NCBI GenBank assembly: GCA_031520405.1
Contig: GCA_031520405.1_4842.1
DNA from: a phage
DNA: 64,000 nucleotides
Strand: one strand, 5' to 3'
Part shown: positions 7,798 through 8,082 of the stretch, piece by piece
Numbering within the stretch: position 1 is the stretch's first letter
Layout of the letters: every line of letters starts with the position of its first letter
Position numbers and translations under genes: made by a program
The notes under the pieces: generated by a model
Told to the model about the DNA's origin: nothing
Database searches by the model: none
The model's input: the letters and a program-made list of their open reading frames with translations, nothing else

Positions 7798-7933
7798 ACG
7801 CAAATCGAAGTTCTCTGGGCTTAACAGGTTCGACCCAACATGTTGTATATCGCCTAACTTACTCATGGGACGGCCACTTCTGTGTACAGACCTTGAGGGT
7901 TAAAAGATATACCCAAAGAACTTCGATTTGCGT
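7798..7933. repeat. perfect 17-bp inverted repeat with 102-nt spacer
   Basis: 7798-7814 ACGCAAATCGAAGTTCT is the exact reverse complement of 7917-7933; an 8-bp hairpin with CAAA loop follows at 7934-7953. Confidence 0.9.
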
Positions 7934-8082
7934 TGTGGGGGCAAACCCCCACACGGCTACTTCTTTGACAGGGATTGCTAGCCCTGGGGATTCCACTGTT
8001 TAAGGCTTTATCCCATAACGCCCGAGGCGCGTTTTAACTTATTGAAGCTTGCATAACTGCAAACTGATGCGCTGTGAGACAC

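Follow-up and report, generated by a model that had tools for sequence, protein, structure and literature searches.

A stem-closed RNA element supported by covariation in an ORF-poor stretch beside the tRNA genes of Ackermannviridae phages

In the 64-kb stretch of phage DNA analyzed here (64,000 nt, hereafter the window) we found a new RNA element, H4, which is supported by covariation and whose closing helix is under selection for pairing. H4 is very probably a conserved structured RNA module of the minus strand. We lean towards the fuller reading in which it is one module of a polycistronic ncRNA-tRNA transcript, where a two-turn duplex would insulate its fold and undergo RNase III-type processing; the RNase III step taken by itself is argued by analogy and is put forward tentatively.

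The window belongs to a Kuttervirus of the family Ackermannviridae (Vi1/CBA120/SFP10-like), and its positions 7000-9500 are 99.9% identical to Salmonella phage BRM 13314. H4 sits in a 2.4-kb stretch (7019-9478) with no ORF of more than 130 aa, flanked by tRNA-Met (6943-7018) and a 189-aa ORF (9479-10048). The 189-aa ORF, the tRNAs and all genes down to about 1500 lie on the minus strand, and on this strand about 780 nt separate H4 from tRNA-Met. The flanking ORFs match PHROGs of unknown function and a tail needle knob; no RNA-related, reverse transcriptase or nuclease domains were found in the proteins flanking the ORF-poor stretch. In Agtre-, Taipei-, Limestone-, Milton- and Nezavisimistyvirus the homologue of the 189-aa ORF is likewise followed by 1.5-3 kb that are poor in ORFs. 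In most public records inspected the stretch is blank or carries short, doubtful hypothetical ORFs of 30-70 aa. A description of the region was not found in the literature on Ackermannviridae, Kuttervirus and Vi01-like phages, of which mostly non-subscription papers were covered, so that an earlier mention is possible.

An earlier note on this DNA had described perfect 17-nt arms at 7798-7814 and 7917-7933 around 102 nt, and these are indeed exact reverse complements (7798-7814 is ACGCAAATCGAAGTTCT). When one mismatch is allowed the helix grows to 22 bp (7798-7819/7912-7933) and encloses 92 nt, the single mismatch being C/A on the plus strand and G.U on the minus strand. Perfect inverted arms of at least 13 nt with a loop of at most 150 nt occur four times in the whole window, all within 7335-8696, and in 60 sequences of 64 kb simulated with a first-order Markov model the longest arm measured 10-14 nt and never more than 14. 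Chance is no explanation for the H4 inverted repeat. The element is present in a single copy, with no further copies in the 64-kb window. A minimum-free-energy calculation, suggested in the earlier note, placed the minus-strand fold of 7798-7933 at -57.5 kcal/mol, far below its shuffles (z = -7.8), while the wider segment 7790-7960 gave a z of about -6.6 against shuffles on either strand. The tight 8-bp GC hairpin that had been noticed next to the repeat (TGTGGGGG-CAAA-CCCCCACA at 7934-7953) was confirmed as well. In the coordinates of the window these features are:

7798..7933, minus strand: H4, a 136-nt stem-closed RNA module
7933-7912 (5' arm) and 7819-7798 (3' arm), minus strand: arms of H4 in RNA sense, a 22-bp helix with one G.U
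7934..7953, minus strand: GC hairpin of 8 bp, UGUGGGGG-UUUG-CCCCCACA when read in minus sense, directly adjoining H4 on its 5' side

Homologues of H4 were found in 247 phage records, all of Kutter-, Agtre- or Taipeivirus except a few that are oddly labelled. A covariance model (R1) built on seven sequences detected exactly one copy in each Kutter-, Agtre- and Taipeivirus locus tested and no copy in Limestone-, Milton- and Nezavisimistyvirus. The syntenic position was identical in all 31 loci, and apparently no Kutter-, Agtre- or Taipeivirus record with the neighbouring ORF lacks H4. Among 5,426 E. coli genomes no homology or complementarity to H4 was detected. When IMG/VR was searched with a pattern of the interior motifs, true copies were found only on contigs of Ackermannviridae size (~155-160 kb) and the other eight matching stretches failed the covariance model; a stricter pattern gave no match in JGI metagenome contigs and GTDB genomes. 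Sites complementary to 13-mers of the H4 interior in the rest of the window amounted to only four one-mismatch matches, without any pattern.

Covariance analysis, also suggested in the earlier note, showed that compensatory changes maintain the closing helix across Kutter-, Agtre- and Taipeivirus. Across 31 copies (17 distinct sequences) 98% of the cells of the 21-bp outer helix were paired, and changes on both sides were observed in 9 of the 21 pairs, against 0-2 in controls where the partner was slid by 1-3 columns. Four central adjacent pairs are changed as one block in Agtrevirus (AUCGA/UCGAU to AGUAG/CUACU), and three other pairs are changed on both sides in Taipeivirus. Support by covariation is limited to this outer helix; three proposed inner helices are weak and showed almost no covariation, and the interior is made up of the conserved sequence blocks UUAA(A)CCC..AAGGU and ACAAnAUG..GGGyC. 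A 10-bp palindrome to which attention had been drawn is present inside the element (CAACATGTTG) but is not conserved: Taipeivirus has CAACATATTG in its place and Agtrevirus CTCATCTTG.

P46FS4 and Ag3, from which the adjoining module B is missing, retain H4, and so do PM10, dinky and Taipeivirus, from which the GC-hairpin module is missing. As it survives deletion or replacement of either flanking module, H4 is an autonomous unit. The independently folding RNA domain of about 135 nt proposed in the earlier note is thus borne out by covariation in three genera and by persistence without its neighbours, but the GC hairpin that had been included with it is not a constant partner. Indels of 1, 5 and 8 nt occur between genera, and these frame-breaking changes exclude a conserved reading frame. 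They bear on the suggestion that the region encodes a small protein, which, together with the suggestion that the GC hairpin, alone or combined with the long stem, acts as an intrinsic terminator, has next to no probability in our estimate. Short ORFs are present at 7730-7903 and 7767-8003 on the plus strand and at 7859-7996 on the minus strand, and some records annotate hypothetical proteins, but the ORFs are unconserved and the majority of records have no annotation here. The tight GC hairpin of 8 bp would suit a terminator; it is, however, followed by CGGCTACTTC on the plus strand and by the H4 arm on the minus strand, with no U-tract on either, was not listed by a terminator scan and is absent from many relatives.

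The likeness of the two arms could also have arisen by copying. H4 would then be a functionless relic, either a decayed tRNA gene or a miniature inverted-repeat element, with arms made alike by template switching or gene conversion; tRNA-like fragments are abundant in the region, the interior sequence GGGUCGAACC is reminiscent of a T-loop, and the four-pair block change could come from arm-to-arm copying. We consider such an origin highly improbable. H4 occurs as a single copy per genome in a constant syntenic place with no target-site duplication, it is retained across a divergence too great for neutral sequence to have lasted, single G.U sites have not been homogenised, and the T-loop-like GGGUCGAACC is not conserved in Taipeivirus.

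H4 was also compared with known classes of element. With Rfam 15 (4227 models) only tRNAs reached the gathering threshold in the window, and at E <= 10 over 5000-9600 nothing overlapped 7798-7953, so the Rfam search that had been proposed assigned no family to the element at either level. A tRNA or tRNA-like identity was rejected because ARAGORN and RF00005 were silent at 7798-7953 and the T-loop-like sequence is not conserved in Taipeivirus. An element of MITE or IS origin would have terminal inverted repeats, and 22-nt repeats are present, but in a single syntenic copy that lacks a target-site duplication. The inverted repeats of a retron msr-msd are likewise present, with no reverse transcriptase among the neighbouring ORFs. 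GOLLD and ROOL gave no covariance-model match at E <= 10. Homology to T4 rnaC/rnaD was rejected for the neighbouring tRNA-like RNA (8208-8340), whose MAFFT alignment with the two gave no meaningful identity.

Between a conserved promoter-like site (~8734-8707) and the tRNA genes there are at least five stem-closed modules, among them H4. In transcribed order the array comprises H2, a tRNA-like RNA, H3, the GC-hairpin module, H4, module B, H6 and a 328-nt block, followed by tRNA-Met. The features other than H4 and the GC hairpin are:

8707..8734, minus strand: predicted sigma-70-like promoter, TTATCA, 16-nt spacer, TATAGT
8614..8696, minus strand: H2, ~22-bp stem, predicted 5' end of the transcript
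8211..8337, minus strand: tRNA-like RNA with 7-bp acceptor stem, expanded arm, T-arm (GGGUUCGACUCCC) and encoded CCA, directly 5' of H3
8080..8212, minus strand: H3, ~21-bp stem, motif CAYAWCUnnGAG, z -4.45
7605..7804, minus strand: module B, ~200-nt multi-helix RNA directly 3' of H4
7335..7426, minus strand: H6, 25-bp stem, 42-nt loop
7024-7351: 328-nt block upstream of tRNA-Met
6943..7018, minus strand: tRNA-Met, nearest tRNA on the downstream side of the module array
6454-6529, minus strand: tRNA-Asn, downstream of tRNA-Met
5698-5786, minus strand: tRNA-Ser, downstream of tRNA-Asn
5362..5384, minus strand: terminator-like hairpin, 9-bp stem with 6 GC pairs, T-run TCTTTTTGTC

The hairpins of the array have stems of 18-29 bp and loops of 27-96 nt (module B closing stem excluded), and compensatory changes between genera were observed in H2, H3 and H6. 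Those of H6 distinguish Kutter-, Agtre- and Taipeivirus, and the base of its stem is retained in Limestonevirus. The H2 stem motif AAGCUGUUUGRG/CYCAAACAGGUU is also found in Serratia phage 2050H1 (Miltonvirus). The closing stem of H3 (CACAUCUUnGAGG...) is kept while its interior is wholly different between phages; in PM10 the interior holds an anticodon-arm-like palindrome and a T-arm-like GGGUUCGAGUCCC (related entry: L004 2731-2827), and analogous hairpins with CAYAWCUnnGAG occur two or three per genome in Milton- and Nezavisimistyvirus. The tRNA-like RNA at 8211-8337 is 92-97% identical between Kuttervirus and Taipeivirus, whereas its flanks are about 75% identical, and neither ARAGORN nor Rfam made a tRNA call for it. 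The GC hairpin belongs to an exchangeable module (~7934-8079) that many Kuttervirus genomes, and every Taipeivirus genome, lack. Homologues of the hairpin are 95% identical, with differences among the window, MK-13, P46FS4 and Ag3 confined to the loop, and unrelated sequence stands in its place in PM10, dinky and Taipeivirus. The 328-nt block matches Limestonevirus RC-2014 at 90% identity and Ag3 at 98%, and is far more conserved than the neighbouring 189-aa ORF (62-70% amino-acid identity).

Module B is closed by a stem of ~20 bp (7605-7619/7790-7804 and beyond). Its 62 predicted pairs were 97.8% paired and 16 of them carried a compensatory change, against at most 3 in any slid control. It contains invariant loops including ACUAAGGGGAAACCCGAGACAGG, with a GAAA tetraloop hairpin, and has no Rfam match; in Agtrevirus P46FS4 and Ag3 the interior of the module is precisely deleted. 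A tetraloop-receptor contact of the GAAA loop with CCUAAG of the tRNA-like RNA was considered and dropped, the UAUGG partner strand being absent. Elsewhere in the region, degenerate tRNA-like pieces were observed on the minus strand at ~8750-8816, ~8983-9071 and 8343-8366, with acceptor-stem pairs, a D-arm-like TAGCTCAGA and the T-arms GGTTCGATTCC and GGTTCGAGTCC. TRNA finders made no call on these three pieces, whose features suggest decayed or remodelled tRNA genes.

The long hairpins have left traces in public records. In those of Salmonella phages dinky (L002 398-418) and aagejoakim (L003 3060-3080) the left arm of H4 is marked as a 21-nt 'repeat_region' with no comment, and the right arm carries no annotation. 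Several assemblies end at or inside long hairpins: the dinky record starts at window position 7403, that of aagejoakim ends at 8649, and L016 and L040 end at ~7601. These ends are probably places where the assembler broke at inverted repeats and not physical ends of the genome.

The region as a whole is mosaic, with breaks of homology at 7604-7610, 7933-7935, about 8102, 8195, 8336 and 8433 that fall on module boundaries. This mosaicism bears on whether H4 could be a peripheral domain of one large co-folded 'ornate' RNA that spans much of 7019-8700 and is GOLLD/ROOL-like in kind. The 2.4-kb region is ORF-poor, densely structured and adjoins tRNA-Met, the H4 3' arm overlaps the closing stem of module B, and GOLLD and ROOL have been reported near phage tRNA islands (PMC12286853, PMC7567579). 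A single large RNA is nevertheless unlikely in our view, as modules are deleted, replaced and exchanged independently, which a co-folded RNA would tolerate poorly. Apart from the H4/B overlap no long-range pairing between modules was found, and the GOLLD and ROOL models were without a match even at E <= 10.

The overlap with module B is as follows. The basal 6-12 nt of the H4 3' arm can also pair with a segment downstream of module B, forming the B closing stem, and the three segments concerned covary, reading CGCAAA/UUUGCG/CGCAAA in Kutter- and Agtrevirus and CACAAA/UUUGUG/CACAAA in Taipeivirus, where the alternative H4/B helix reaches 25 bp. Since the 3' arm is shared, the closing helices of H4 and B are never both complete. 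The arrangement may be a simple stacking of helices with strand competition, or it may be a switch, in which the H4 3' arm has two alternative partners, its own 5' arm and the segment downstream of B, and the choice between them controls folding, processing or read-through into the tRNAs. The covarying segments and the 25-bp alternative helix would fit a switch, which we nonetheless rate as very improbable. H4 is far more stable and is transcribed first, the three-way match is automatic if both helices are individually selected, and no ligand-like pocket or terminator is associated with it. Moreover, H4 survives without B in P46FS4 and Ag3, which makes a switch the minority reading.

The predicted sigma-70-like promoter lies about 10 nt upstream of H2. 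Other genera have TTGTCA in place of TTATCA, and Ag3 has TTTTCA; in the alignment TCAATAA and AGTATAGTTA were invariant in Kutter-, Agtre-, Taipei-, Limestone- and Miltonvirus. At the other end, the hairpin at 5362-5384 stands after the last tRNA and, judged from its sequence, would end the ncRNA-tRNA unit. As H4 is among the modules between the promoter-like site and the tRNA genes, most likely it belongs to a single polycistronic ncRNA-tRNA transcript. This transcript would start at the predicted promoter (~8707-8734) and run on the minus strand through the modules into the tRNAs.

Two further observations were made in this part of the window. An element at 5609-5694 on the minus strand scored 48.7 bits with the Rfam tRNA model, with a 22-nt insertion in the anticodon-loop region, and was not called by ARAGORN. 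It is a pseudo 'tRNA-OTHER' in the SFP10 record, and in FEC14 and Sa157lw a tRNA-Ile annotation falls under the match to it, although that the two are the same is only presumptive. An 18-nt motif, TTATTCAATAAATAATTG, occurs on the minus strand at 9457-9474 and 6912-6929, directly after the 189-aa ORF and directly after tRNA-Met, with 2 mismatches between the copies. It includes AATAAATA, which is close to the T4 late-promoter consensus, TATAAATA.

To determine which strand folds, the long hairpins of the region were detected in ten phages by Watson-Crick pairs only, a procedure that is strand-neutral, and the mismatches were then classified. Half of the transitions in a helix are expected to give A.C on a given strand. 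In the unique stems of H4 and its sibling hairpins the transition mismatches on the minus strand were 29 G.U and 2 A.C, counts that are phylogenetically non-independent; a tally of distinct sites by eye gave about 14 G.U against 2 A.C. Such an asymmetry indicates that what folds is a single, minus-sense strand. Compositional skews are about 10%, which is too small to account for 29:2, and a strand-biased C-to-T mutation could contribute. The folded strand of H4 is thus the minus strand, that of the tRNA genes, and the first reading of the repeat is corrected in this respect.

A single-stranded DNA hairpin of minus sense that tolerates G.T would leave an identical wobble asymmetry. The folded molecule is most likely RNA, and the preference over single-stranded DNA comes from the context, namely the strand of the tRNA genes, the tRNA-like elements with T-arms and encoded CCA that lie between the hairpins, the promoter-like site and the terminator-like site. 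We consider it very unlikely that the hairpins act as DNA, that is, as a cruciform or single-stranded signal for replication, priming, packaging or recombination. The clustering of long inverted repeats in one non-coding region, the mosaic breakpoints at stem boundaries, the tolerance of G.T in single-stranded DNA hairpins and the ending of several public assemblies within hairpins would be compatible with such a role. For duplex or cruciform DNA, however, the 29:2 asymmetry is unexpected, and the favored strand is the transcribed one downstream of a conserved promoter-like site. Nor does a DNA-level role give a rationale for neighbours such as tRNA-like elements and a multi-helix RNA in which 16 pairs covary, and the assembly ends vary by record and resemble assembler breaks at palindromic sequence.

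For H4 as an RNA module of the minus-strand transcript, the near-perfect 22-bp closing duplex, which amounts to two turns, probably insulates the fold from its neighbours. By analogy with known processing stems, host RNase III might cut this duplex and so release or stabilise an RNA of ~100-130 nt. RNase III cuts such duplexes in rRNA processing stems and in phage T7 and T4 transcripts. The helix has the size of a substrate, being a near-continuous 22 bp with one G.U on the minus strand, and the sibling stems of 18-29 bp are of about the length of the minimal substrate of E. coli RNase III. Sites of this type are reportedly present in the early mRNA of phage T7, and an RNase III step is said to take part in the processing of the T4 tRNA cluster. 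H4 shares with these stems a helix of about two turns, made by sequences on either side of a stable RNA in a polycistronic transcript (a proposed one in the case of H4) of an enterobacterial phage, by tRNA genes. It differs in that its duplex, which is predicted only, is nearly perfect whereas the T7 sites contain an internal loop, and there is no sequence similarity.

Other known phage RNAs resemble the locus in part. Like T4 rnaC/rnaD (species 1 and 2), the RNAs described here are small, structured and co-oriented beside phage tRNA genes, and the architecture of rnaC (acceptor stem, expanded arm, T-arm) is shared by the tRNA-like RNA at 8211-8337 with no sequence similarity. However, rnaC/rnaD lie downstream of the tRNAs and the RNAs of the window upstream, and H4, unlike them, is without tRNA-like features and is closed by a 22-bp stem. 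The PeSL cassettes of T4-type phages are said to consist of an early promoter and a short stem-loop that flank protein genes. The likeness lies in stem-loop-bounded units for genome shuffling, as the breakpoints here coincide with stem boundaries; in our locus, by contrast, the stems enclose structured RNA, and H4 is syntenic and not mobile. GOLLD (RF01998) and ROOL (RF03087) are large ORF-free structured RNA loci in phages, often by tRNA islands; GOLLD env-38 lies downstream of tRNA-Met, and tRNAs are sometimes found in the GOLLD linker (PMC12286853, PMC7567579). The location at a tRNA island is shared by the H4 locus but is context and does not define a family, and the H4 locus differs in being modular, with modules lost or exchanged independently, and in belonging to virulent enterobacterial Ackermannviridae.

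The array may be read more broadly, as an undescribed class of phage RNA locus over 7019-8700 in which stem-closed cassettes, driven by an early promoter, would be fused to the tRNA operon; they would include the long hairpins, the ~200-nt multi-helix RNA and a tRNA mimic resembling rnaC. In this broader form the closing stems would be the points at which Ackermannviridae genera exchange cassettes. The targets of the cassettes would be host RNA metabolism or anti-phage defence, where they might for instance serve as decoys for nucleases directed at tRNA or dsRNA, and the alternative H4/B pairing would be a folding or processing switch. Taken jointly, these proposals are doubtful.

Structured RNAs and processing stems in phage tRNA operons were already known; what is new is the H4 family, which is experimentally accessible. 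Its main value is as an entry to a larger unannotated ncRNA-tRNA locus that is conserved across a phage family. Ackermannviridae (Vi1, CBA120, SFP10 and relatives) are widely isolated and serve as therapeutic and biocontrol phages. If the proposed transcript is correct, the annotation of these genomes would be corrected and the breaking of their assemblies at hairpins explained. About 1.5% of the genome would then consist of conserved structured RNAs made together with tRNAs from an early host-type promoter, and these phages would provide a Gram-negative, tractable example of the association between phage tRNA islands and structured ncRNAs that is seen with T4 rnaC/rnaD, GOLLD and ROOL.
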